Shown: positions 5,511 to 61,518, counted from the first letter of the stretch. The stretch: DNA of 61,717 nt from Oscillospiraceae bacterium (GCA_017455015.1 JAFTBW010000073.1:1-61717), one strand, 5' to 3'. Notes: a model not told the origin generated them from the sequence alone. Numbers and translations are program-made.

Positions 5511-5681
5511 ATGAATATGACAGAAAACTCCCGGCTCATGATCGGTCTGCGCGAGAAAGGCTGGAGCGATACGGAGATCGTCAATTTCTGCCTGTGGGTT
5601 GAGACCGGTGATGAAAAGTATCGCCCGAAAGAGGATGCGAAAATCAAAGGAAACGCTGATTCAATCAACGTGTGCGATTGA
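5511..5681 (+). CDS. Small hypothetical protein (56 aa)
   Basis: AAGGAGG RBS 7 nt upstream of the ATG, with its own promoter and a downstream GC hairpin. Sequence MNMTENSRLMIGLREKGWSDTEIVNFCLWVETGDEKYRPKED. The last 11 codons and the stop are encoded by family-1 repeat copy B1. Confidence 0.5.
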   Translation: MNMTENSRLMIGLREKGWSDTEIVNFCLWVETGDEKYRPKEDAKIKGNADSINVCD

Positions 5682-5716
5682 CGAGCAATTTTTGTGTCCG
5701 CCAAGGCGCAAAAAAC
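5646..5716 (+). repeat. Family-1 repeat, copy B1 (left arm only)
   Basis: AAAGGAAACGCTGATTCAATCAACGTGTGCGATTGACGAGCAATTTTTGTGTCCGCCAAGGCGCAAAAAAC matches the left arm. The core loop and right arm are absent and replaced by a GC hairpin. Confidence 0.75.
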
Positions 5717-5752
5717 GCCGCCCGGCTTGATGCCGGGCGGCAAAGCTTTTTC
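5711..5752 (+). terminator. Intrinsic terminator-like hairpin
   Basis: GCCGCCCGGC-ttgat-GCCGGGCGGC is a perfect 10-bp stem, flanked by an A-run upstream and AAAGCTTTTTC downstream. Confidence 0.55.
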
Positions 5753-5784
5753 TCGGGTCATTTTATCTGTGCGCCGTTTTTGCA

Positions 5785-5948
5785 AAGGAAGCGCTGATGA
5801 AATCCGGCGAGAGCAGATGTCGAGCAAATTTTCGCCGGATCAAGGCGCAAAAAGTGCAGGAATACCTTGTGTATTTCAAACTTTTTGCAACGCAGAGCCG
5901 GCGAAAATTTGCCGGCAGATGCCGAAGACGGATGAATCAGCGTTTCCC
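5785..5948 (+). repeat. Family-1 repeat, copy B2 (diverged arms, conserved core)
   Basis: Termini are AAGGAAGCGCTGA ... TCAGCGTTTCCC and the core is GCAGGAATACCTTGTGTATTTCAA. The stem segment AAATTTTCGCCGG / CCGGCGAAAATTT replaces the canonical TTTTGTGTCCGCC / GGCGGGCGCAAAA. Confidence 0.8.
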
Positions 5949-5954
5949 AAAGGC

Positions 5955-6815
5955 TTATCCGGCCTGTGATGCCCTTCGCGCAGCCTCGGCCACATGGGAG
6001 GCCAGCACGCTGGTGGTCATGCCGCCCACGCCGCCGGGGACCGGGGTGTAGGCCCGGACGATGCCCTCCGCCTCCTCCTGAATAAGATCGCCGCAGAGCT
6101 TTCCCTTTGCCTCGTTCCAGCCGATGCCCACGTCCAGCACCACCTGGCCGGGCCGGAGGTATTCCGCGCCGACGCGCTCCATCTGTCCCGTGGCGGCCAC
6201 CAGGATGTCCGCCTCCCGGGCCAGAGCGGCCGCGTCCGGGGTTTTGGTGTGGCAGACCGTCACCGTGGCGTTGGCGTGCAGGAGCAGCATTGCGACGGGG
6301 CGTCCGATCACCAGGGAGCGGCCCAGCACCACCGCCCGCCGCCCCGCGGGGTCCGTGCCGTAATAGCGCAGCAGCTCCATCACCGCCTGGGCGGTGCAAG
6401 GGGGAAAGCCAGTGGGCATGCCCGTGAACACGCCCGCCAGGGAGCCGTCCGTGCAGCCGTCCACGTCCTTTTCCGGGGCAAGCAGCCGTCTTGCCCGCTC
6501 CCCGTCCAGATGCTCAGGCAGGGGGCGCAGCATCAGGATGCCGTGGACCGCGGCGTCCCGGTTCAGGTCCTCCAGGGTCCGGAAAAAGCTGCCGCTGTCC
6601 ACGGTTTCGGGCAGCGTGACGGGCCGGACGGCGATGCCGGTCTGTGCGCAGCGCTTCACCGCTCCCCGCTCATAGCTCAGGTCGCTTTCCCGCTCCCCCA
6701 CCCGGAGGATCGCCAGGGTGGGGACGACGCCCGTTTCCCGCAGCGCAGCCGCAGCAGCAGCGGTCCTTTCGTCCAGCGCAGCCGCCGCCGGCGCGCCCTT
6801 CCACTTCTCCGCCAT
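5955..6815 (-). CDS. folD: Bifunctional methylenetetrahydrofolate dehydrogenase / methenyl-THF cyclohydrolase
   Basis: 286 aa with FolD-like layout (PTLAILRVGERESDLSYERG..., GRSLVIGRPVAMLL, TPVPGGVGGMT). Confidence 0.9.
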   Translation of the reverse strand: MAEKWKGAPAAAALDERTAAAAAALRETGVVPTLAILRVGERESDLSYERGAVKRCAQTGIAVRPVTLPETVDSGSFFRTLEDLNRDAAVHGILMLRPLPEHLDGERARRLLAPEKDVDGCTDGSLAGVFTGMPTGFPPCTAQAVMELLRYYGTDPAGRRAVVLGRSLVIGRPVAMLLLHANATVTVCHTKTPDAAALAREADILVAATGQMERVGAEYLRPGQVVLDVGIGWNEAKGKLCGDLIQEEAEGIVRAYTPVPGGVGGMTTSVLASHVAEAARRASQAG

Positions 6816-7450: not shown

Positions 7451-7575
7451 CCTAACCCGGATAAACCGGAAAAGTGGTCAGTGGTCAGTGGTCAGTGGTT
7501 AGTGATATAGACGGATCACAAACCTCCGGATAAAAAGATTTTGCCATTTTGCGAAATCTTTTGGCCATAAGTGGC
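7451..7575 (-). repeat. Family-3 repeat, copy 3a (contains a 7-nt tandem array)
   Basis: About 95% identical to 40794-40917. Contains GTGGTCA x3 plus GTGGTTA at 7474-7501. Begins directly after the TAG stop of fhs. Confidence 0.85.
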
Positions 7576-23550: not shown

Positions 23551-23583
23551 TAAAGCCTTCCCCTCGGGGGGAAGGCTTTAAAA
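23551..23583. terminator. Bidirectional terminator hairpin (family-4 hairpin-1 type)
   Basis: TAAAGCCTTCCCC-tcgg-GGGGAAGGCTTTAAAA lies between convergent rmuC and spoIID. Its 3' arm contains the spoIID stop codon. Confidence 0.65.
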
Positions 23584-24689: not shown

Positions 24690-24853
24690 AAGGAAACGCG
24701 GAATAAATCCCCGCGCACGCCTGGCGGCAAATTTTGCGCCCGCCTGCGTTGCAAAAGCCTTGAAATACACAAAGTATTCCTGCGGTTTTTGCGCCTTGGC
24801 GGGCACAAAATTTGCTCGCCAATCGCACACGTTGCTTTCATCAGCGCTTCCCT
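24690..24853 (-). repeat. Family-1 repeat, copy D
   Basis: Full-length copy in reverse orientation, between the divergent spoIID and membrane-protein genes. Confidence 0.85.
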
Positions 24854-34181: not shown

Positions 34182-37100
34182 TCAGTCCTGGATCAAAATC
34201 TCCAGCGTCTCATACAGGTGCTCCGGCTCCACCGGCTTGCTGAGGTGGGCGTTCATGCCCACCTGCAGGGAGCGCTGCACATCCTCGTCAAAGGCGTTGG
34301 CCGTCATGGCGATAATGGGGACGGTCTTCGCGTCGGCTCGCGGCAGGGCGCGGATGGCGGCGGTCGCCTCAAGGCCGGTCATCACGGGCATGCGCACGTC
34401 CATCAGGATGGCGTCGTAGGTGTTCTCCGGGCTGTTCTGGAACATCTCCACCACAATCTGTCCGTTCTCCGCGTGATCGACCTCCATCTCCCGCATCCCC
34501 AGCAGCTCTTTCATGATCTCCGCGTTGATGAGCATGTCCTCGGCCAGCAGAATGTGCTTTCCGGTCAGGTCCGCCCTGTGGACATCCTCATGGCTGACGC
34601 TCTTCCGGGCGATGGCAAGCTGGAACTCCTCCAGCACCCCGGACGCGAACAGGGGCTTTGACATGAAGCTGTCCACGCCGGCGGCGATGGCGTCCTCCAT
34701 GACATCGTCCCAACTGTAGGCGGTCAGGATGATGATGGTGCTCTCCCCGTTGTACAGCTCCCGAATGGCCCGGGTGACCTCCACGCCGTCCTGCTCCGGC
34801 ATCCTGAGATCCACCAGGATCAGATTGTAGGCCTCCCTGCGGGCGTGGGCCAGGCGGAGCATCTCCATGGCCTCCCGTCCGCTGTAGCAGGAGTCGGAGA
34901 CGATGCCCACCTCCTCCAGCACCAGTCTGGCATGCTCGCAGGCGACGGGGTCGTCGTCAATGATCAGCACACGCATATCCTGGGGACGGAGCCCGCCGCC
35001 CGCCTGGGCCTTTTTGCCGGATTTTTTCAGGGTGACGGTGACGGTAAAGGTGGAGCCCACGCCCTTTTCGCTCTCCACGGCGATGTTGCCGTTCATCATC
35101 TCCACGATGTTTTTGGTGATCGCCATCCCCAAGCCGGTGGAGCCGTACTTGTTCGCCTTGTTGGAGTCCTCCTGGGAGAAAGCCTCAAAAATTTTGGGCA
35201 GGAAAGCCTTGTCCATGCCCACGCCGGTGTCTTTCATGACAAAGCGCAGGGTGGCCTTGTCCTCGTACTGGGACACGGGCTCCACCAGGAACGTCACGGT
35301 GCCGCCCTCCGGCGTGAATTTCACAGCGTTGCCCAGAATGTTGATGATGACCTGCTTAAGCTTCATGGCATCCCCGATGTAAAAATCCTCCACATGGCCG
35401 GTGATGCGGCAGTCGTAAACCAGGCCCTTGTCCTGGCACTGGCCGTTGATCATGGTGTTGATCTGCTCCAGTATCTCCCGGAACGAGAATTCCTCGCTTT
35501 TCAGGGTCATGCGTCCGCTCTCGATGCGGCTCATATCCAGAATGTCGTTGATGAGGGATAGCAGATGCTTGGCGCTGCCGCCGATCTTTTCCAGTTGCTC
35601 CCTGGTCTTTGGGGGAAGGTCGGGGTCGCTGAGGGCGATGCTGTCCAGACCGATGATGGCGTTCATCGGCGTGCGGATCTCGTGGCTCATGCTGCTGAGA
35701 AAGCTCGTCTTGGCGGCGTTGGCCCGTTCCGCCTCGCTCAGGGCGTTGGCAAGCAGCTCGTTGCGCACCCGCTGCTCCATCAGCACCTCGGTCACGTCGG
35801 ACTTCAAAAGGATGTAGAATTGCGTGTCCCGGTTCACCGGATAGAACGTGAACCGCTTGTTGAAAATCTCGCCGCCGATGGCACAGGTGACATCCACGGA
35901 ATAGCTGTCCTCGGTCTCCAGCACTTTTTCCACGGTCTCCAGGAGGAGCGCTGACGCCGTGGCCTCCCGTTCCTCCTCCGGGACCACGGGGAGGACCTGT
36001 TCCTGCACATAGTCCATATAGACGCCGTCCCGCTTCTTCGGGAAAATGCTGCCCCGGGCGATGTTGGCGGCGTCCCCGATGGTCACGCCGTAATAGCCGC
36101 CCACCAGATAGGTGACCATGTCGTACTGCTGGGCGAGGATCTTCCGGTTCATCACGTCGGTGATCATCTCAGAGTTGTACTCCGTCTCAATGCCGAAGGC
36201 GTCCACGTCCCCCGTCACGGGGTTGCGGCTGGCGGAGCCGGAGAACCGGACGAAGCACTGCCGCCCGGAGGCCCGCCGGCAGTAGCACACCAGCGTGGCC
36301 GGCCCCAGCCCCCGGGCGGTGCGCTCCAGGAGCCTTTCCATGTCAAAGGTCTCGATATACTTCTCCCGGTCGCTCTCCACCAAAAGGCTTTCCAACCGGC
36401 TGGCGGCATAGGCCGGGACGGTGTTGCCCACATAGTCCGAGGGATAGAGGTCGTTGCCCCGGATGTCCTCGATGAGACCCGTGGACATGTTGGAGCGGAT
36501 AACGGTGAGGCTCTCGTCCGCGATGGCGTTGAACTGGTCCACCATGCTGTTGTGGATGGTCTGGGTCCGCTCCCGCTCCCGCTGCTCCCGCAGTATCTCC
36601 GTGATGTCGGATTTCAGCAGAATGTAGAACCTGGTCTCCCTGTCCACGGTGTAGTAGGTGAAGCGCTTTGTGAACGTCTCCCCGCCGATCTCGCAGACGA
36701 CGTCCACGGAATAGCTCTCCTCTTCCTCAAGCTTTGCGGCGATGGTCTCCAGGGAGAGGGCGCTGCGTATCAGCTCCCGTTCTGCCTCCGGCACGACGGG
36801 AAAAACCTGCTCGCGGAGGTAGTCCATATAGATCCCGTCCCGCTGCTTCGGGAAAATGCTGCCTTTTTTGATGTTTGCGGCGTCTCCGATGGTGACGCCG
36901 TAGTTGTTGTCCACGATGTAGCACACCATGTCATACTGCTTGGCCAGGACCTTTTCGTTGAGGACCTCGCTGACCTTCTGGGAGTTGTATTCCGTCTCCA
37001 CCCCCAGAACGATCACGTCGCCGGTCTCGGGGTCCCGGCGCATGGCTGCGGAATACTTGATAAAGCACTGCCGGCCGGACTGCCGCCGGGAGAAAAACAC

Positions 37101-37778
37101 CAGCTCGGAGGGACCCTCGCCGAGATAATACTTCTCCTGGAGCTTTTCCAGGTCAAATACCTTTACGTAGGTCTCCCGGTCCGAGGCCACGGGCATATTG
37201 GCCATGCGCACGTTGATGAGGTCCGTGATCGGCGCGCCGGGCTTGTCCACGTCGTAGAGGTCCGTGCCGTGGACCTCCTCCACCACGCCCTTTGTCAGAT
37301 TGGAGCGCAGGGCGGCAAGGCTCTGGCTGGACAGCGCCTCCAGCTCCTTGTTCAGCTCCCGGTACATGGCCATGGTCTGCTGCTGGCTCTGCTTTAGCTC
37401 CGTCACGTCGGTATAGGTGCAGTAGGCGTACTGCACGCCGTCCTGCTTGACAAAGGCGTAGTGGACGGTGACCCAGATCTCGCCGCCCAGGACCGTGCGC
37501 TTGCGGAATGTCAGGCTGTTGGAGCCGTCCCGGGCGACCTGGTTCTGAAACAGATAGGCAACGCGCTCCCGGTCCTCCGGGTGGACGGAGATCATGCCCT
37601 CGCCGCTCTCAAAGAGGATGCACTCCTCCTCCGTTCCCTCCATCATCTCCGCGTACTCGTGGGAACACCAGACCGGGCGGTACGCCCCATCGGCGTCCAC
37701 CTGCATCAGCACGGAGTTGTTGTCCAACGATTCAAAGAGCTTTTCGTAGAATCCTGTCTCAAAGTGCAACATAAGCAT
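34182..37778 (-). CDS. Cytoplasmic hybrid sensor histidine kinase / response regulator (PAS + duplicated sensory module + HisKA-HATPase + 2 REC)
   Basis: 1198 aa; the true start may be the second ATG at 37772, 7 nt from AGGAG. H-box SHEIRTPMNAI, G-boxes DTGVGM/GSTGLGM, REC motifs DLRMPEQDG and MDVRMPVMTG. No TM segment. Confidence 0.9.
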   Translation of the reverse strand: MLMLHFETGFYEKLFESLDNNSVLMQVDADGAYRPVWCSHEYAEMMEGTEEECILFESGEGMISVHPEDRERVAYLFQNQVARDGSNSLTFRKRTVLGGEIWVTVHYAFVKQDGVQYAYCTYTDVTELKQSQQQTMAMYRELNKELEALSSQSLAALRSNLTKGVVEEVHGTDLYDVDKPGAPITDLINVRMANMPVASDRETYVKVFDLEKLQEKYYLGEGPSELVFFSRRQSGRQCFIKYSAAMRRDPETGDVIVLGVETEYNSQKVSEVLNEKVLAKQYDMVCYIVDNNYGVTIGDAANIKKGSIFPKQRDGIYMDYLREQVFPVVPEAERELIRSALSLETIAAKLEEEESYSVDVVCEIGGETFTKRFTYYTVDRETRFYILLKSDITEILREQRERERTQTIHNSMVDQFNAIADESLTVIRSNMSTGLIEDIRGNDLYPSDYVGNTVPAYAASRLESLLVESDREKYIETFDMERLLERTARGLGPATLVCYCRRASGRQCFVRFSGSASRNPVTGDVDAFGIETEYNSEMITDVMNRKILAQQYDMVTYLVGGYYGVTIGDAANIARGSIFPKKRDGVYMDYVQEQVLPVVPEEEREATASALLLETVEKVLETEDSYSVDVTCAIGGEIFNKRFTFYPVNRDTQFYILLKSDVTEVLMEQRVRNELLANALSEAERANAAKTSFLSSMSHEIRTPMNAIIGLDSIALSDPDLPPKTREQLEKIGGSAKHLLSLINDILDMSRIESGRMTLKSEEFSFREILEQINTMINGQCQDKGLVYDCRITGHVEDFYIGDAMKLKQVIINILGNAVKFTPEGGTVTFLVEPVSQYEDKATLRFVMKDTGVGMDKAFLPKIFEAFSQEDSNKANKYGSTGLGMAITKNIVEMMNGNIAVESEKGVGSTFTVTVTLKKSGKKAQAGGGLRPQDMRVLIIDDDPVACEHARLVLEEVGIVSDSCYSGREAMEMLRLAHARREAYNLILVDLRMPEQDGVEVTRAIRELYNGESTIIILTAYSWDDVMEDAIAAGVDSFMSKPLFASGVLEEFQLAIARKSVSHEDVHRADLTGKHILLAEDMLINAEIMKELLGMREMEVDHAENGQIVVEMFQNSPENTYDAILMDVRMPVMTGLEATAAIRALPRADAKTVPIIAMTANAFDEDVQRSLQVGMNAHLSKPVEPEHLYETLEILIQD

Positions 37779-40793: not shown

Positions 40794-40917
40794 CCTAACC
40801 CGGATAAACCGGAAAAGTGGTCAGTGGTTAGTGGTTAGTGGTTAGTGATATAGACGGATCACAAATCTCCGGATAAAAAGATTTTGCCATTTTGCGAAAT
40901 CTTTCGGCCATAAGAGC
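40794..40917 (-). repeat. Family-3 repeat, copy 3b
   Basis: About 95% identical to 7451-7575. The array is GTGGTCA x1 plus GTGGTTA x3. Starts directly after the TAG stop of the minus-strand gene 40918-42897. Confidence 0.85.
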
Positions 40918-51323: not shown

Positions 51324-51390
51324 CCCCTCATCCGCCATCCGCCTCGCGGGGGATCGGCGGATGCCACCTTCCCCCAGAGGGGAAGGCTTT
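51324..51390 (-). repeat. Family-4 repeat, copy 4b
   Basis: The reverse complement reads AAAGCCTTCCCC-tct-GGGGGAAGG, TGGCATCCGCC-(12-nt loop)-GGCGGATGGC, GGATGAGGGG. It abuts family-1 copy E. Confidence 0.7.
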
Positions 51391-51554
51391 AAGGAAACGC
51401 TGATTAAATCAACGCGTGCGATTGGCGCGCAAATTTTGTGTCCGCCAAGGCGCAAAAACCGCAGGAATACTTTGTGTATTTCAAGGTTTTTGCAACGCAG
51501 GCGGGCGCAAAATTTGCCGTCAAGCGTGCGTGGAGATTTATTCAGCGTTTCCTT
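51389..51554 (+). repeat. Family-1 repeat, copy E (canonical)
   Basis: TTAAGGAAACGCTGA ... TCAGCGTTTCCTTAA are 15-nt perfect terminal inverted repeats, and the arms pair along their whole length. The right end supplies ATT TAA of the DUF2284 gene. Confidence 0.9.
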
Positions 51555-52089
51555 AAATGGTGTGATACAGCAGGCAGCAGGTGTAGGCGATCTTTTCGTC
51601 GCCGTAGTTGTAGGGCACGCCGTTGTCCTTGCAAACCTGGCTGACGAACAACCCGCAGGCCTCCATGGAGGGAAACAGCTTTTCCGGGAAGCGGCAGGGG
51701 GCGTCCGGGTAGGTGCAGGTCTTGCATCGGGTGCAGGTCCCGGCGGTCATGAACAGAAAGTCCTCCCCCGCCGCCAGCAGCCGGTCCGCCAGAGCGTCGG
51801 TCTGGCGCTTGTTCTCCTCCGCCGCCTCCAGCATGGCCTCGATGTCGTAGGAGTCCTCCCGGTCCCCGACGGTCTGGAGCAGCAGACCGCGGTCGTAAGC
51901 GGCAGCCTTCTTCTCCCAGTCGGAAATCTCCCCGCAGGCCGGGGGACATGACCAGTTTTTGTCGTAGCTCCGGCAGCGGTCCGCGGCGCACATGCTCCGC
52001 ACCTCCGGCAGGAATTTCAGCGTGGCCGGGTCCAGCGGGGCCACATTCGTAAAGCCGCTCTCCCTGGCGGCCTGGGCAAAGTCCGTCAT
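51553..52089 (-). CDS. DUF2284 metal-binding protein
   Basis: 178 aa starting MTDFAQAARE (GGAGGAGG RBS; ATGA overlap with the upstream gene). Cys-rich signature CRSYDKNWSCPPACG ... CTRCKTC. Confidence 0.8.
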   Translation of the reverse strand: MTDFAQAARESGFTNVAPLDPATLKFLPEVRSMCAADRCRSYDKNWSCPPACGEISDWEKKAAAYDRGLLLQTVGDREDSYDIEAMLEAAEENKRQTDALADRLLAAGEDFLFMTAGTCTRCKTCTYPDAPCRFPEKLFPSMEACGLFVSQVCKDNGVPYNYGDEKIAYTCCLLYHTI

Positions 52090-53582
52090 ACAAATACCTC
52101 CTCCCACTCGTCGAACAGCATCGCTTCGATGTAGTTGTCGTTGAACAGCGGCGAGGAGCTGAGCTCCTCATAGCCGCATTTTGCCGTCAGCTCCGCCAGC
52201 GCACGCCGTCCCTGCTCCGTCAGCGCCAGGGCCGCGCCCTTGCCGGCGCTGTTGCCCACGCTGCGCACACGATCCAGCAGCGCGGGGGGCAGCATCCCGA
52301 TGGCGCAGGCGCTTTGCAGCCGCAAAAAAGCCCCGAAACCGCCTGCCAGCAGCACCTGGGCGATGTCGCCGTACTCCTTTCCGCTGCGCTCCAGCAGGGT
52401 CTCGATGCCCGCCCGCACCGCGGCCTTGGCCAGTTGGAGCTGGCGCACGTCCTTTCCGGAGAGGTAAACCTCGCCGGAGAGGGTGTACTTTTCCGCGTCC
52501 ATCCGGCCCGTCTCGTCGATGATCTCATTGTAGAGCAGCGCCGCCACGGCGTCGATGAGGCCGCTGCCGCAGAGGCTTTTTGCCGCTCCGCCGCCCAGGA
52601 CCGTGCACTTCAAATCCGTCTCCACGGCGCTGATGGCCCCGTCCCGCGCCGGGGAGCCGCAGGCTATCTCCGCGCCCTCAAAGGCCGGTCCGGCGGCGGT
52701 GGCGCAGGAGAGAAAGCCGTCGCGGTTACCCAGGGCCATCTCCCCGTTGGTGCCCACGTCGATGAACAGGGTCAGACCGTCGGAGCTTGATGCGCCGCTG
52801 CTGAGAAGCCCGGCGGTGATGTCGCCCCCCACATAGCCAGCCACGGCGGGACAGAGGTAGAGGCGGCAGTCCGGGGCAAAGCAGTCAAAATAGCCTGAGG
52901 CAGCCTCCTCCCGGCCAAAGAGGCTCAGGGGCGCAAAGGGGGCCACGCCGATGCTCTCCGGGCTGAGGCCGGCAAAGAGATGCTCCATGACCGTGTTCCC
53001 GGCGATGCTGACGTAAGTGATTTTCGCGGTGTCCGGACTCAGCCGCCGCGCGAGCTCCCGAATCTGGCTCCGGATGGCGTCCCGCAGGGCGGCCAGCCCC
53101 TCCGGGGTGCGGGCGTGCTGGATGCGGCTGATCACGTCCCCGCCCCAGCTCCGCTGGGCGTTCATCTCCCCCGCCGCCCCCAGACAGCGGCCTGTGGCCA
53201 GGTCATAGAGATAGGCCGCGACGGTGGTGGTGCCGATGTCCACGGCAAGGCCCAGGCCCGTTCCCTCGCCGGGGATGTCAATGGCGTCGGCCAGCACCCG
53301 GTCCCCGGCGGACAGGGGGACCGTTACTTCCCCGTCTCCGGCCGGGCGGAGGCGGCAGGAAAGAGCCTTTTCCCCGCGGTACTCCCGTGTCTGCCCGCCG
53401 GCGTCGCAAAACAGGCCGGTGCAGACTACGGAGCACTGATTGCAGGTGCCGTTGCCCCCGCAGGGCGCCTGGACGGCGATACCGGCGTCCCGGAGGAATT
53501 CCAGCAGCGTCCTGGCCGGGGAGGCGCGCAGGGTATGGGTCTCCGTCCCCTGCGTGACGGTGATGCGATGGGTTTGTTCCAT
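52086..53582 (-). CDS. RACo/RamA-like corrinoid reductive activase (2Fe-2S ferredoxin + ASKHA ATPase, DUF4445)
   Basis: 498 aa starting MEQTHRITV. N-terminal CGGNGTCNQC and an ASKHA phosphate-binding motif LAVDIGTTTVAAYL. Confidence 0.8.
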   Translation of the reverse strand: MEQTHRITVTQGTETHTLRASPARTLLEFLRDAGIAVQAPCGGNGTCNQCSVVCTGLFCDAGGQTREYRGEKALSCRLRPAGDGEVTVPLSAGDRVLADAIDIPGEGTGLGLAVDIGTTTVAAYLYDLATGRCLGAAGEMNAQRSWGGDVISRIQHARTPEGLAALRDAIRSQIRELARRLSPDTAKITYVSIAGNTVMEHLFAGLSPESIGVAPFAPLSLFGREEAASGYFDCFAPDCRLYLCPAVAGYVGGDITAGLLSSGASSSDGLTLFIDVGTNGEMALGNRDGFLSCATAAGPAFEGAEIACGSPARDGAISAVETDLKCTVLGGGAAKSLCGSGLIDAVAALLYNEIIDETGRMDAEKYTLSGEVYLSGKDVRQLQLAKAAVRAGIETLLERSGKEYGDIAQVLLAGGFGAFLRLQSACAIGMLPPALLDRVRSVGNSAGKGAALALTEQGRRALAELTAKCGYEELSSSPLFNDNYIEAMLFDEWEEVFV

Positions 53583-54042: not shown

Positions 54043-55023
54043 TCACGCGAATTTCAGCGTGGCGTAATTGCCGTACTTTTTGCCCTCGTCGTCGATGATG
54101 CCGTCCACCTTCGGCACCACGGAAAACATCACCGAGGAGGAGGCCATGAGGCCGCCGCCCTTGCCCAGGGTGTCGATGACCCGGCGGACCTCCGCCCGGA
54201 TGGTCTCCTCCGTGGCCCCTGGCACGTCCGTGACCTGGGCGTCCACGGCGCCGGCGAAAACCAGCCTGTCCCCGTAGGTCTCCTTCAGCATCTTCAGATC
54301 GTTCATGGGCTGGACGGAGTGCCAGGAGTCCACGCCGATCTCCACCAGATCTCCCACGATGGGGGTGATGTAGCCGCAGGAGTGGTGCATGTAGTGCATC
54401 CCCAGGTCGTGGGCGGCCTTGGCCATGCGCCGCTCCGGCTCCTTGTAGAACTGCCGCCACTGGTCCGGGGACAGGAACATGTTCTCCTGGTTGCCCCAGT
54501 CGTCGTGCATCATCACAAAGTCGATGTCCAGGTACTCCTTGAGCAGAGAGAACAGGTTGATGCGGTAGTCGGCGTAGGCGTCCACATAGGCCTGGTAGGC
54601 GTCCTCGTCGTCATAGGGGGCCATCAGGCCGTTGGCGTGGCCCATCATGGCGCAGATGCGCTCGAAAGCGCCCATGTTGCCCACATAGTAGCCCTGGAGC
54701 TGGTCCTTTTTGCTCCACATGGCCTTGGTGCGCTGCCGGGCCGCCTCCCAGTCCTTGTCCTTGAAGTCGGGGAATTTGATGTAATCCTCCCACTCCGTGA
54801 TGTCGTCGAACTTTTCCGCCCCCGGCTTCACGTGGGTCATCAGCTCCGGATGGGCCGGGTCCAGCTCCCACTCCAGGCCGAAGTGGTCCTTTCCGCTCAT
54901 GAACAGCGGACGGTCATTGACCTCCGGCGTGATGATCATCTGGGCCGCCGTGTTGATCATGGGCACCCATTCCGGCTGCTGGTGGTTCCAGCAGATCTCC
55001 ATGTTTTCCCGCTCTGTCAGCAT
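54043..55023 (-). CDS. Uroporphyrinogen-decarboxylase (URO-D) family protein, corrinoid-methyltransferase-like
   Basis: 326 aa with a TIM-barrel URO-D-like layout (MHDDWGNQ, HHSCGYITPIVGDLVEIGVDSWHSVQP). Genomic context with a RACo-like activase. Confidence 0.7.
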   Translation of the reverse strand: MLTERENMEICWNHQQPEWVPMINTAAQMIITPEVNDRPLFMSGKDHFGLEWELDPAHPELMTHVKPGAEKFDDITEWEDYIKFPDFKDKDWEAARQRTKAMWSKKDQLQGYYVGNMGAFERICAMMGHANGLMAPYDDEDAYQAYVDAYADYRINLFSLLKEYLDIDFVMMHDDWGNQENMFLSPDQWRQFYKEPERRMAKAAHDLGMHYMHHSCGYITPIVGDLVEIGVDSWHSVQPMNDLKMLKETYGDRLVFAGAVDAQVTDVPGATEETIRAEVRRVIDTLGKGGGLMASSSVMFSVVPKVDGIIDDEGKKYGNYATLKFA

Positions 55024-55117
55024 TGCTCCGTCCCCCGTTCCGTATCGTTTTCAGTTTGATTGATACGGAGAGTATAGCAGATACCGGCCGGCGGCGCCAG
55101 CAGTTTTTCCTTTCAAG

Positions 55118-55138
55118 CTTACAACCAACGGTTGTAAG
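55118..55138. promoter_or_regulatory. Perfect palindrome upstream of the URO-D-family gene (candidate operator)
   Basis: CTTACAACC-aac-GGTTGTAAG, 95-115 nt upstream of the ATG at 55023. Confidence 0.3.
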
Positions 55139-55141
55139 GCA

Positions 55142-55293
55142 GTGTCCAGAAATAAATGCCACAATGATTGCGCAGTATTTTTGGCCTGTGCCAAGGCGGA
55201 AAAGCGCAGGAATACTTTGTGTATTTCAAGCTTTGACAACGAAGGCACAGGCCAAAAAGACAAGCAAGAATGTGGCATTTGTTTTTGGACAGC
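55142..55293 (+). repeat. Family-1 repeat, copy F1 (strongly diverged arms, conserved core)
   Basis: The core GCAGGAATACTTTGTGTATTTCAAG is intact. The arms GTGTCCAGAAATAAATGCCACA.../...TGTGGCATTTGTTTTTGGACAGC are unlike the canonical arms but are mutually complementary. Confidence 0.8.
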
Positions 55294-55297
55294 GCCT

Positions 55298-55461
55298 AAG
55301 GAAACGCTGATTAAATCAACGTGTGCGATTGGCGAGCAAATTTTGTGTCCGCCAAGGCACAAAAACCGCAGGAATACTTTGTGTATTTCAAGGTTTTTGC
55401 AACGCAGGCGGGCGCAAAATTTGCCGCCAAACGTGCGCGGGGATTTATTCAGCGTTTCCCT
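55298..55461 (+). repeat. Family-1 repeat, copy F2 (canonical)
   Basis: Full-length copy, 4 nt downstream of F1. Confidence 0.9.
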
Positions 55462-55466
55462 AAGCG

Positions 55467-56354
55467 TCACTCCGCCTCGAAGCGCTCCCGGAGGCCGCTG
55501 ACGATCTCCGCCAGATCCTTGTCCGGGCTGCCGTCCCGGTAGAGCAGCACGGTGGAAAAGCGCAGGGGCGTGCCGGGGTAGGGAAAGCTCTTGATCCTGG
55601 CCTCCTCCATGTTTGTGAAGGCCAGGGGGAACACGGCAAAGCCCGCCGCCTGGCCCAGCAGCACCAGCATGGTCTCAAAGTTGCGGGCCTCGATCACCTT
55701 GCGGCAGGGGATATTCCGGTAGAAGCTGGCCTCGGCGGGTACGGTATAGTGGTCGTCGTCCATGCGCATTTTGATGAAGCACTCGCTTTTCAGGTCCTCG
55801 GCAGTGATACCGGACCGCATCGCCCAGGGGTGCAGCAGCGACACCACCACCCTGGCCTCGTAGGTGCCGAACACCAGCCGCCGGCAGCCCTCCCAGTCAT
55901 CCTCCTCGTGGGAGTTGGTCAGCAGCAGGTCCAGCTTGCCGTCCAGAAAGCGCCGCAGGCCGTCGGAGAGCTCCAGCATCTCCAGGCCGATCTGCCTGTC
56001 CGGAAAAGCGGAGAGCAGATAGGACACCAGCGGCAGCACCAGGTTTTCCCGGGGCAGCGCAGAGAAGATGCCCAGATTGAGCCGGTCTCTGCCGTTTTGG
56101 GCGTATGCCCGGATGTCGCCCACCGCGGCATCGAAATCCCGGACGACGGATTCCAGCTTTGTCCAGGCGTAACGCCCCAGGGGCGTCAGCGCCGCGCCCC
56201 GCCGGGTGCGGGTGAACAGTTCGCCGCCCAGCTCCCGCTCCAGGATGCCCATCTGCTTGGTCAGGGCCTGGGGGGACAGATACAGCTCCTGCGCGGCCAG
56301 GGAGAAGCTCTCCTTCTCCGCCGCCGTAAGAAAATATTTGATCCGCTGCAGCAT
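55467..56354 (-). CDS. LysR-family transcriptional regulator
   Basis: 295 aa. N-terminal wHTH FSLAAQELYLSPQALTKQMGILE followed by a LysR substrate-binding domain. Confidence 0.85.
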   Translation of the reverse strand: MLQRIKYFLTAAEKESFSLAAQELYLSPQALTKQMGILERELGGELFTRTRRGAALTPLGRYAWTKLESVVRDFDAAVGDIRAYAQNGRDRLNLGIFSALPRENLVLPLVSYLLSAFPDRQIGLEMLELSDGLRRFLDGKLDLLLTNSHEEDDWEGCRRLVFGTYEARVVVSLLHPWAMRSGITAEDLKSECFIKMRMDDDHYTVPAEASFYRNIPCRKVIEARNFETMLVLLGQAAGFAVFPLAFTNMEEARIKSFPYPGTPLRFSTVLLYRDGSPDKDLAEIVSGLRERFEAE

Positions 56355-56914: not shown

Positions 56915-57136
56915 ATGCAGATGTTCGGCAAAAGATTGAACACGACGCGAAAAGAAAAGGGCTACAGCGCGCAGCAGATGGCAGATTTGCTCCATATCAG
57001 CATTCGCAACTATCGAAAATATGAAAGTGGCGACGTGAAACCGACGCTGGAGGGATTGGCCGCGATTGCGGATATTCTGGATGTGTCCGCGGATTATCTG
57101 CTGGAAAGGGATGCGTTTCTCTCAAGGAAGCGCTGA
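56915..57136 (+). CDS. XRE-family helix-turn-helix transcriptional regulator
   Basis: 71-73 aa; ATG 56921 has the better spacing to GGAGAGG. HTH YSAQQMADLLHISIRNYRKYESG. The last three codons and the stop lie in family-1 copy G. Confidence 0.8.
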   Translation: MQMFGKRLNTTRKEKGYSAQQMADLLHISIRNYRKYESGDVKPTLEGLAAIADILDVSADYLLERDAFLSRKR

Positions 57137-57286
57137 TAAAAGCAACGTGCGCGGTTGGCGAGCAAATTTTGTGTCCGCCAAGGCGCAAAAACCGCAGGAA
57201 TACTTTGTGTATTTCAAGGTTTTTGTAACGCAGGCGGACGCAAAATTTGCCGCCAAGCGTGCGCGGGGATTTATTCAGCGCTTCCT
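57124..57286 (+). repeat. Family-1 repeat, copy G
   Basis: AAGGAAGCGCTGA ... TCAGCGCTTCCT termini with the canonical core. Confidence 0.9.
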
Positions 57287-57975: not shown

Positions 57976-58997
57976 AAAAGGAAGAGGTCCTGGCCCTGCT
58001 GCTGGAGCGCTCAGGCAGCTTTGTCTCCGGGGCGGAGGTCGCCGAAAGCCTCTCCGTCAGCCGCTCCGCCGTGTGGAAGTGGGTGGAACAGCTTCGCGCC
58101 GAGGGCTACCCCATCGAGTCCGTGACCAACCGGGGCTACCGGCTGGACGGGGATAATGATTTGCTCAGCGCGCCGGGCATCCGCCGCCATCTGCGCCACG
58201 GAGAGGCGGACATCCGCGTCTTTGACAGCGTGGACTCCACCAACGCCGTGGCAAAGCGTTTGGCCTCCGAGGGCGCGGCCCACGGCACCGCGGTGGTCGC
58301 CGGGAGCCAGACCGCCGGACGGGGGCGGCTGGGCCGCAGTTTTTTTTCCCCAGCCGGCAGCGGGCTCTATCTCAGCGTAATCCTGCGCCCTGCCCTGCCC
58401 CCCACGGAGGCGACAGCCATCACCTGCTGCGCCGCGGTGGCGACGGCAAAGGCGGTGGAGGCCGTGACGGGAAGGGCGGCGGAAATCAAGTGGGTCAACG
58501 ACGTACTGCTGGACGGAAAAAAGGTCAGCGGCATCCTGACCGAGGCGGCCATGAGCCTGGAGACCGGCCTTGTGGACTATGTGGTGGCGGGCATCGGCGT
58601 CAACACCCGGCCCCCGGAGGGGGGCTTCCCGGCGGAGCTGCGGAACATTGCCGGAGCCCTTGGCGCGGAGCGTCTGCCGGAACTGCGCTGCCGCCTGGCG
58701 GCTGCCATCATTGACGGGCTGCTGGACGGCTGTGCGGACCTGAAAAGCGAGGCGCTGTTCGCGGAATACCGCCGCCGGAGCGCGGTGCTGGGGCAGGAGA
58801 TTCTCGTGCTGGCCCCGGGGCGGGAACCGCGGGAGGCGCTGGCGCTGGATCTCGGGCGGGATTACTCTCTGCTGGTGCGCTACCCCGACGGCAGCTCCGC
58901 CGCCCTGAGTTCCGGGGAGGTGAGCGTACGGCGCGCTTCGTTTTCTATCCTTCCCCCTCTGGGGGAAGGTGGCTGCGCCGCAGGCGCAGACGGATGA
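57972..58997 (+). CDS. birA: Bifunctional biotin--protein ligase / biotin-operon repressor
   Basis: 341 aa. The ATG overlaps the bioY stop. N-terminal wHTH and the GRGRLGRSF motif. The last ~17 aa and the stop are encoded by family-4 copy 4c. Confidence 0.9.
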   Translation: MKKEEVLALLLERSGSFVSGAEVAESLSVSRSAVWKWVEQLRAEGYPIESVTNRGYRLDGDNDLLSAPGIRRHLRHGEADIRVFDSVDSTNAVAKRLASEGAAHGTAVVAGSQTAGRGRLGRSFFSPAGSGLYLSVILRPALPPTEATAITCCAAVATAKAVEAVTGRAAEIKWVNDVLLDGKKVSGILTEAAMSLETGLVDYVVAGIGVNTRPPEGGFPAELRNIAGALGAERLPELRCRLAAAIIDGLLDGCADLKSEALFAEYRRRSAVLGQEILVLAPGREPREALALDLGRDYSLLVRYPDGSSAALSSGEVSVRRASFSILPPLGEGGCAAGADG

Positions 58998-61461: not shown

Positions 61462-61518
61462 AGCCTTCCCCCTCCGGGGGAAGGTGTCGCGGCGCAATGC
61501 GCCGTGACGGATGAGGGG
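61459..61518 (+). repeat. Family-4 repeat, copy 4d
   Basis: Starts at the ilvN TAA: TAAAGCCTTCCCCC-tcc-GGGGGAAGG, TGTCGCGGCGC-aat-GCGCCGTGAC, GGATGAGGGG. Confidence 0.7.

Follow-up and report, generated by a model that had tools for sequence, protein, structure and literature searches.

Two adjacent hairpin MITE insertions with a common apex and different ends in an intergenic region of an Oscillospiraceae contig

The intergenic region at 55024-55466 of the window, by which we mean the whole 61,717-nucleotide stretch of Oscillospiraceae bacterium DNA that was analysed, lies between two minus-strand genes, a LysR-type regulator gene (55467-56354, −) and a URO-D family gene (54043-55023, −), whose Pfam names were taken from the source annotation of the identical contig. 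It carries two elements in the same orientation. Judged by sequence, fold and ends, F1 (55138-55296, +) is a 159-nt hairpin MITE with termini GGCAGTGTCCAG... and ...TTGGACAGCGCC, which belong to an end class that we call class B, and F2 (55300-55459, +) is a 160-nt hairpin MITE with class A termini GGAAACGCTGATTAAATC... and ...GATTTATTCAGCGTTTCC. In a covariance model search F1 scores 96 bits and F2 164 bits. The apex of F1 (55206-55230, +) is made of GCA, a 7-bp stem GGAATAC-GTATTTC with a TTTGT loop, and AAG, and the 25-nt apex of F2 (55368-55392, +) is identical to it. F2 is also 91-95% identical to three other full-length copies in the window.

The spacing of the two elements is 3 nt (TAA) and not the 4 nt given in the initial annotation, whose limits for F1 (55142-55293) and F2 (55298-55461) are slightly corrected here. 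F1 is flanked by a TAA target-site duplication on its left (55135-55137) and on its right (55297-55299), and class B copies elsewhere also have 3-bp duplications. As read from the sequence, the last base of F1 (55296) together with the right TAA of F1 forms the left CTAA duplication of F2, whose right CTAA lies at 55460-55463. Because each of them has its own target-site duplication, of 3 bp and of 4 bp, F1 and F2 are independent transposon insertions. Since the left CTAA of F2 consists of F1 sequence and F1's own duplication, F1 is the older of the two, and we conclude that F1 inserted first and that F2 then landed on the right junction of F1. Taking out both elements in silico restores a 10-bp hairpin, GCTTACAACC/GGTTGTAAGC, with which the LysR-type stop codon is immediately followed (55118-55138 and 55464-55466), and the TAA target of F1 sits within the stem of this hairpin. 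Among records sharing the protein of the flanking URO-D gene the arrangement was always identical, with no empty allele, and metagenome runs covering the locus were fragmented at the repeats and gave no allele without F1 or F2.

The core GCAGGAATACTTTGTGTATTTCAAG occurs seven times in the window, six times exactly and once, in copy B2, with two changes, against a chance expectation of 0. An unfiltered covariance model search of the window recovered these seven and, as its only further hit, a half copy, B1; the density is about one element per 8 kb. Besides F1 and F2, the copies, all of class A, are copy A (1-136, −), which is truncated by the window start; B1 (5649-~5722, +), a left-arm half copy without apex, assigned like copy A by covariance model and sequence; B2 (5787-5947, +), 161 nt long, with different inner stems and the duplication CAAA/CAAA; copy C (24692-24851, −), with flanks TTAG/TTCG; copy D (51393-51552, +), with TTAA/TTAA; and copy G (57126-57285, +), with TCAA/TCAA. 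Full copies in the window are 159-161 nt long, and a simple in-house coding score selected none of the ORFs that cross the elements. Within 5649-5760, at the point where an apex would be expected to start, B1 gives way to a GC-rich hairpin, CCGCCCGGC...GCCGGGCGG, with a T-run behind it, and the two together resemble an intrinsic terminator.

The element alters gene ends, and one copy in the window rewrites the last codons of a regulator. Copy G interrupts the 3′ end of a 73-aa HTH (XRE-type) gene (56915-57136), the protein of which now ends in ...AFLSRKR* with a stop codon supplied by the element; removal of copy G and one TCAA restores the end ...AFLSKKGKG*. The TAA stop codons of the genes at 137-1159 (−) and 51553-52107 (−) fall in the TTAA (137-140 and 51553-51556) flanking copies A and D, and both genes terminate in CCATTTAA, a shared end that hints at a possible longer target preference, (A/C)TTTAR. 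In an approximate gene call, element ends often lie within ~15 nt of a stop codon. The target is AT-rich in a GC-rich genome, and therefore many ends lie near stop codons and two stop codons of the window lie inside TTAA.

The predicted fold of F1, F2 and B2 is in each case one long hairpin, with RNA minimum free energies of -79.4, -99.3 and -85.9 kcal/mol and z-scores against dinucleotide shuffles of -11.1, -14.0 and -10.5, respectively. The stems that the initial annotation had singled out are all present: TTTTGTGTCCGCC / GGCGGGCGCAAAA in the canonical copies (11 Watson-Crick pairs and 2 G·T), TTTTTGGCCTGTGCC / GGCACAGGCCAAAAA in F1 (a perfect 15 bp) and AAATTTTCGCCGG / CCGGCGAAAATTT in B2 (a perfect 13 bp), together with the closing stems AAACC/GGTTT, AAAGC/GCTTT and AAAGT/ACTTT. 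Its expectation that changes in the two arms would be correlated in a larger alignment was borne out by an alignment of 89 distinct copies of full length (6 of them in the window, the other 83 in MAGs), for which RNAalifold gave 41 consensus pairs, 34 of them with pair-keeping changes on both sides. Paired cells made up 90.6% compared with 68.0 ± 0.5% in shuffled alignments (0 of 500 as high), double-change cells numbered 807 compared with 278 ± 16, and the covariation score was 0.575 compared with 0.179 in the control; copies of one lineage are not independent, and hence the shuffle controls overstate significance and these comparisons should not be read as probabilities. Sliding the partner by 1-3 columns lowered the paired cells to 39-53%, and the consensus pairs carry 127 additional pair types, which together make chance implausible as the source of the arm covariation.

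The fold belongs to one strand. When both strands were folded, as had been proposed, the plus strand was more stable than its complement in 88 of the 89 copies with RNA parameters (mean -22 kcal/mol) and in all 89 with DNA parameters (mean -10 kcal/mol), and after the core had been swapped for GAAA it was still more stable in 86 of the 89. The consensus pairs that lie outside the apex include 233 G·U against 71 A·C (3.3:1). Several asymmetries are fixed across subfamilies, namely an AAGG / ACGMA internal loop, a GCA / AA loop beneath the apical stem, and left and right ends that differ as GATTAAAT and GAATAAAT. Pairing along the whole element is maintained by covariation, and much better on the plus strand, which tolerates G·U/G·T pairs. 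The copies are not decaying dead repeats, in agreement with the initial annotation.

The apex requires more caution, because the genome scan demanded the core, so that the core is constant by construction in the 89-copy alignment and its invariance there is circular. A fairer sample is given by the extra copies in the collected loci that were found by covariance model or by terminal-repeat matching; ~5 of these have an exact core, and ~10 (about two thirds) have 1-6 core changes. The description of the apex as essentially invariant is to be read with this caveat. Conservation is nevertheless much higher in the apex than in the arms: the apex changes at ~7% by a rough count, and inner and outer arms are 32-57% identical between copies. 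Diverged cores keep the apical stem by compensation, for example as GCCATAC...GTATGGC, GGCAATAC...GTATTGAC and GGAATAA...TTATTTC, and most of them keep the TTTGT loop, with TTTAT and TCTGT seen once each. Hence the apex behaves as a stem-loop with a sequence-specific loop, and it may, as the initial annotation proposed, be a protein-binding site.

Two classes of ends are combined with this hairpin. Class A ends, such as GGAAnCnCTGATTAAATC, are of the types GGAAnCnCTGA..., GGCAAYACCGC... and GTAAnCGnTGA... and go with a 4-bp duplication; class B ends are of the types GRRCCTGT..., GGAACTGTGCAG... and the GGCAGTGTCCAG of F1 and go with a 3-bp duplication. F1-like ends are present in other MAGs, for example at L110 and in a Red-deer MAG. 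Over the outer ~35 nt of each side the two classes are 32% identical, which is about the level of unrelated sequence, whereas the inner part is 47% identical between classes and 48% within class A. Both classes share an inner module of ~100 nt, with a long stem, fixed internal loops, the 7-bp stem and the TTTGT loop. Accordingly, the outer arms of F1 and F2 did not diverge by stepwise compensation, as had been supposed, and are different end modules from unrelated terminal-repeat classes; the differences between their inner stems are true covariation. This comes close to the contrary case foreseen in the initial annotation, in which elements merely have the core in common by recombination, except that the shared part is the inner ~100 nt and reaches beyond the 25-nt core.

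The same arrangement is seen in copies that occupy one site in related species. The flanks of L051:2726-2896 and L094:925-1095 are 86-89% identical and those of L007:6488-6658 and L092:5417-5587 are 73-79% identical, and in both pairs the ends differ in blocks while the inner part and core are kept, with 10-13 pairs changed on both sides. Same-site copies with unrelated ends mean either that the site was hit twice or that the ends were replaced in place.

Duplications and empty sites confirm that the element is mobile, a property that the initial annotation had left out of account. Within one subfamily the flanking repeats vary from copy to copy (CTAA for F2, TTAA for D, TCAA for G and CAAA for B2), with left equal to right. 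An exact 4-bp flanking repeat was found in 28 of the 83 full-length copies with aligned ends, compared with 4.1 ± 1.9 (maximum 12 in 5000) when the right flanks were permuted. For class A this amounts to 28 of 47 copies, with TTAA, CTAA, TTAG and TCAA dominant. Class B has 3-bp repeats (TAA, TTA, TCA, AAA) and never 4 bp; these flank five of seven full-length copies and six of seven shortened F1-like copies of one Red-deer MAG. The outermost 10-14 nt are complementary in most copies, giving terminal inverted repeats of several end types. An empty paralogous site exists in one MAG, where AAAAAC-TTGG-ATATCC is found against AAAAAC-TTAA-[element]-TTAA-ATATTCC (L086 and L089), and for both copies of L083 several public runs have contigs that pass from one flank straight into the other and lack 162-164 nt, which is the element plus one repeat copy. 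A TA-only duplication of the IS630/mariner type was considered and rejected, the CTAA, TCAA, CAAA and CAAG duplications not being readable in that way.

IS5-family and PIF/Harbinger-type DDE transposases make staggered 3-4-bp duplications at TTAA/CTAA/TAA-like sites and act on ends that start with GG; according to ISfinder values, IS5 makes 4-bp duplications at YTAR, and the IS1031/PIF subgroups make 3-bp duplications at TNA/TWA. The YTAR-like 4-bp duplications of class A and the TAA/TTA/TCA duplications of class B agree with these values. The ends of E. coli IS5A, GGAAGGTGCGAA, have only GGAAG (~5 bases) in common with the element ends, and class B ends such as GGCCTTGTTTG and GAGCCTGTTT resemble those of Tourist elements. 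In ~870 kb of DNA (window plus loci), there were no end sequences outside known copies that would mark an IS, no half-cores at possible IS boundaries, and no inverted-repeat pairs 0.7-3 kb apart with a duplication, and a phmmer search with E. coli IS5 InsH against six-frame ORFs of the same sequences returned nothing at E <= 10. A lone end-like match in L058 was considered as an IS and rejected. Since no autonomous element was found, the transposase assignment draws on duplication length, target preference and end shape only; these suggest that DDE transposases of the IS5 / PIF-Harbinger kind act in trans, one per end class. In structure the element is a MITE in every respect except for the missing autonomous partner.

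The family is widespread in its host group. When one genome per species was scanned for the 23-nt core, at least 111 core-bearing stretches were found, almost all in MAGs labelled Oscillospiraceae, Faecousia, Limivicinus, Avoscillospira, Oscillibacter, Acutalibacter, Butyricicoccaceae and Ruminococcaceae; among the matches listed, the MAGs come from human, rabbit, mouse, deer, buffalo, goat, sheep and yak, and three records are labelled Alloprevotella, Barnesiella and Megasphaera, labels that we take to be binning errors. In gut metagenomes (runs X1-X4), words of the canonical subfamily (F2, 55300-55459) have 450-650 times the depth of single-copy flanks, and words of the F1 outer arms only ~3-10 times. 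Because element words are hundreds-fold deeper than the flanks, gut metagenome assemblies break at the element, and contigs indeed end there. A plasmid collection gave no element match. In a phage collection the matches were three unannotated human-faecal 'Bacteriophage sp.' contigs only (MT835604.1 29844-29965, MT837732.1 and MT838926.1), whose copies have 73-82% identity over 34-76% of F2; the family therefore also occurs in phage or prophage DNA. Rfam gave no hits at gathering score over the whole window, and at E <= 10 only microRNA-precursor models, which match any long hairpin, at the F1/F2 locus. We found no paper with the core sequence or on MITEs of Oscillospiraceae/Ruminococcaceae.

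Derivatives of the element are frequent. They include ends-only forms, such as a 54-nt copy and a 22-nt remnant with TGA on each side, and forms in which part of one arm is missing or the apex is duplicated (L100:152-205, L095:1651-1726, L058:~6585-6606, L064:1375-1567, L099:1608-1815 and many CAJOFI01 loci).

Expression of the plus strand has no visible source at the locus. Longest-ORF gene calling is unreliable in GC-rich DNA, and a trained position-specific score was used in its place; with it, the orientation of elements relative to neighbouring genes was mixed and leaned towards antisense, in counts that are approximate (<E< 27, <E> 20, >E> 15, >E< 13). No promoter-like or terminator-like sites were found in F1 or F2. 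With mixed orientation and no such sites, the plus-strand RNA that would be required has no obvious origin. No RNA run matched the window locus. Metatranscriptome contigs carry related copies joined to unrelated flanks, and the runs concerned (F2 and L083) are unstranded; the depth excess of the element over its flanks in metatranscriptomes is ~25-100 times and is not above the ~180 times seen in a run of ambiguous type labelled GENOMIC/RNA-Seq. Among the features of a structured RNA, covariation on one strand was found, and a discrete RNA with consistent orientation and a curated Rfam match were not. Our reading is that the strand-specific fold was inherited from the lineages that spread, with no visible tie to local transcription.

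We think it likely that F1 and F2 belong to a large superfamily of hairpin MITEs, non-autonomous, ~160 bp long and not described before, in the Oscillospirales of gut and rumen; these would be moved in trans, and their spread would depend on the hairpin and its apex. F1 landed in a TAA within the small hairpin just past the LysR-type stop codon, and F2 followed in the CTAA made by the last base and the TAA of F1, each presumably moved by the transposase of its own end class. Spread would be confined to lineages in which the plus strand, be it RNA or single-stranded DNA, can form the hairpin and offer its apical stem-loop to a factor that recognises a specific sequence. The apex is common to two end classes, and this factor is therefore probably distinct from the end-binding transposase. 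It is conceivable, and to us rather doubtful, that the inner ~100-nt hairpin is itself a functional module, a structured RNA or a single-stranded DNA ligand of a conserved Oscillospirales protein, and is carried through gut Clostridia as MITE cargo by at least two unrelated end systems (those with 3-bp and with 4-bp duplications). If this is true, selection would act on the function of the module and not on transposition alone.

The remaining explanations account for part of the data each. A multi-copy family of structured small-RNA genes that serve the host, with no transposon involved, would agree with the strong covariation, the strand-specific fold and the tolerance of G·U, with same-site copies (L051/L094 and L007/L092) that keep pairing and core despite different arms, and with the related copies in metatranscriptome contigs. 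However, copy-specific 3-4-bp duplications and empty sites mean insertion as DNA, orientation is variable, promoter, terminator and Rfam match are lacking, and copy G lies inside a coding 3′ end, so that we regard such a family as unlikely; mobility does not exclude an RNA role of the inner module. A DNA-level by-product without structural selection, whether from template switching, arm replacement or a few master-copy lineages, could produce outer arms that differ as whole modules between classes and the difference between L051 and L094 in blocks instead of scattered points, and related sequences can beat all shuffles without any structure. Yet arm-to-arm correction would give symmetric arms, and the fixed asymmetries persist across subfamilies (the AAGG / ACGMA and GCA / AA loops, and the GATTAAAT and GAATAAAT ends), as does the 3.3:1 excess of G·U over A·C; the additional pair types and the collapse of pairing with a slid partner also speak against it, and we give this origin little credence.

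HUH enzymes read hairpin signals of the kind that the apex represents, a stem-loop with a conserved loop and, here, a covarying stem, and the fold is strand-specific under DNA parameters too (89/89). An element of REPIN/RAYT type or derived from IS200/IS605, with single-stranded DNA as its substrate and a Y1 HUH transposase recognising the apical hairpin, would fit these features. Such systems make no target duplication and have a fixed flanking tetranucleotide, however, whereas CTAA, TTAA, TCAA and CAAA occur here within one subfamily and the elements have long terminal inverted repeats. Because its duplications are copy-specific, the element falls outside the definitions of REPINs and of IS200/IS605, and an origin of this type is very improbable. 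Hardly credible is a local tandem duplication followed by compensatory divergence in place, the reading implied when F1 and F2 were described as tandem diverged and canonical copies. Their adjacency, common orientation and identical 25-nt apex would be expected from it, but the junction anatomy, with separate target duplications of unequal length (TAA and CTAA), refutes it; moreover, F1-type ends with 3-bp duplications exist in other species, the outer arms are unrelated, and F2 has its close relatives in the three other window copies.

Under the preferred reading, a mobile hairpin MITE, several known systems offer parallels. REP sequences and REPINs are abundant intergenic hairpins near gene ends with a structure maintained within each family, and in all of these points our element is like them. 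REPINs have no target duplication, carry the conserved REP at the arm ends and not at the apex, and are moved by a single-copy Y1 enzyme; our element, unlike them, duplicates its target and conserves its apex. With IS5 and the PIF/Harbinger-Tourist MITEs it shares 4-bp and 3-bp duplication classes and ends starting with GG, but ~870 kb of sequence yielded neither an IS5-like transposase nor a full-length partner, and the likeness of the ends is limited to ~5 bases. ERIC is described as having a central inverted repeat that is conserved. ERIC and Correia elements are imperfect-palindrome MITEs of 100-160 bp that lie in untranslated regions and form stable RNA hairpins, and Correia elements have a central IHF site and are cleaved by RNase III in transcripts (PMC3184786, PMC10969869). 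They differ from our element in that they belong to Proteobacteria, use TA-type targets and have one described end type per family. Neither a strand asymmetry such as that seen here (88/89) nor two duplication lengths are described for them (PMC3184786, PMC10969869).

The closest description is that of bcr1, a dispersed intergenic repeat of ~155 bp in the Bacillus cereus group (Firmicutes), flanked by short direct repeats; its locations are not conserved between strains, and a long hairpin at the RNA level is kept by compensatory changes (PMC3184786). The direct repeats of bcr1 are 5 bp long, and it is transcribed (PMC3184786, PMC10969869). Our element is likewise a dispersed hairpin (~160 nt) of a Firmicutes host with direct-repeat flanks and compensatory changes. 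It differs in the length of its duplications, and bcr1 is confined to one species group; a constant apex with unrelated end classes is not reported for bcr1, with which we made a comparison by description only. Hairpin MITEs with compensatory changes are thus already known from bcr1 and ERIC, and the kind itself is not new. What is new is the family, which is very abundant, its group of hosts, and the combination of a constant apex with ends that can be exchanged.

Oscillospiraceae belong to the most abundant bacteria of the gut and to those least cultured, and a covariance model of the family would aid annotation and repeat masking of their MAGs. The unusual features of the element are its inverted pattern of conservation, with a constant apex and interchangeable ends, the use of one inner module by two transposition classes, and the strong strand bias. 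These make it a testable case in which a small structured nucleic acid, and not the transposon ends, may be the unit of selection.

The window holds further repeats. A short hairpin, CCTTCCCC-N4-GGGGAAGG, occurs at four sites (23556-23575, 51367-51386, 58949-58969 and 61464-61484) where 0.11 are expected; one of them is 6 nt from copy D, and the flanks of L086 and L089 are full of this motif. From its sequence it looks REP-like or terminator-like. A third family consists of two 121-nt copies (7451-7571 and 40794-40914) that are 97% identical and hold a short run of GTGGTCA-like heptamers and two small hairpins. Finally, internal repeats at 35764-36263 and 36574-37073, 72-73% identical and spaced by 810 nt, lie within a 1198-aa ORF (34182-37778, −) and are probably repeated protein domains.
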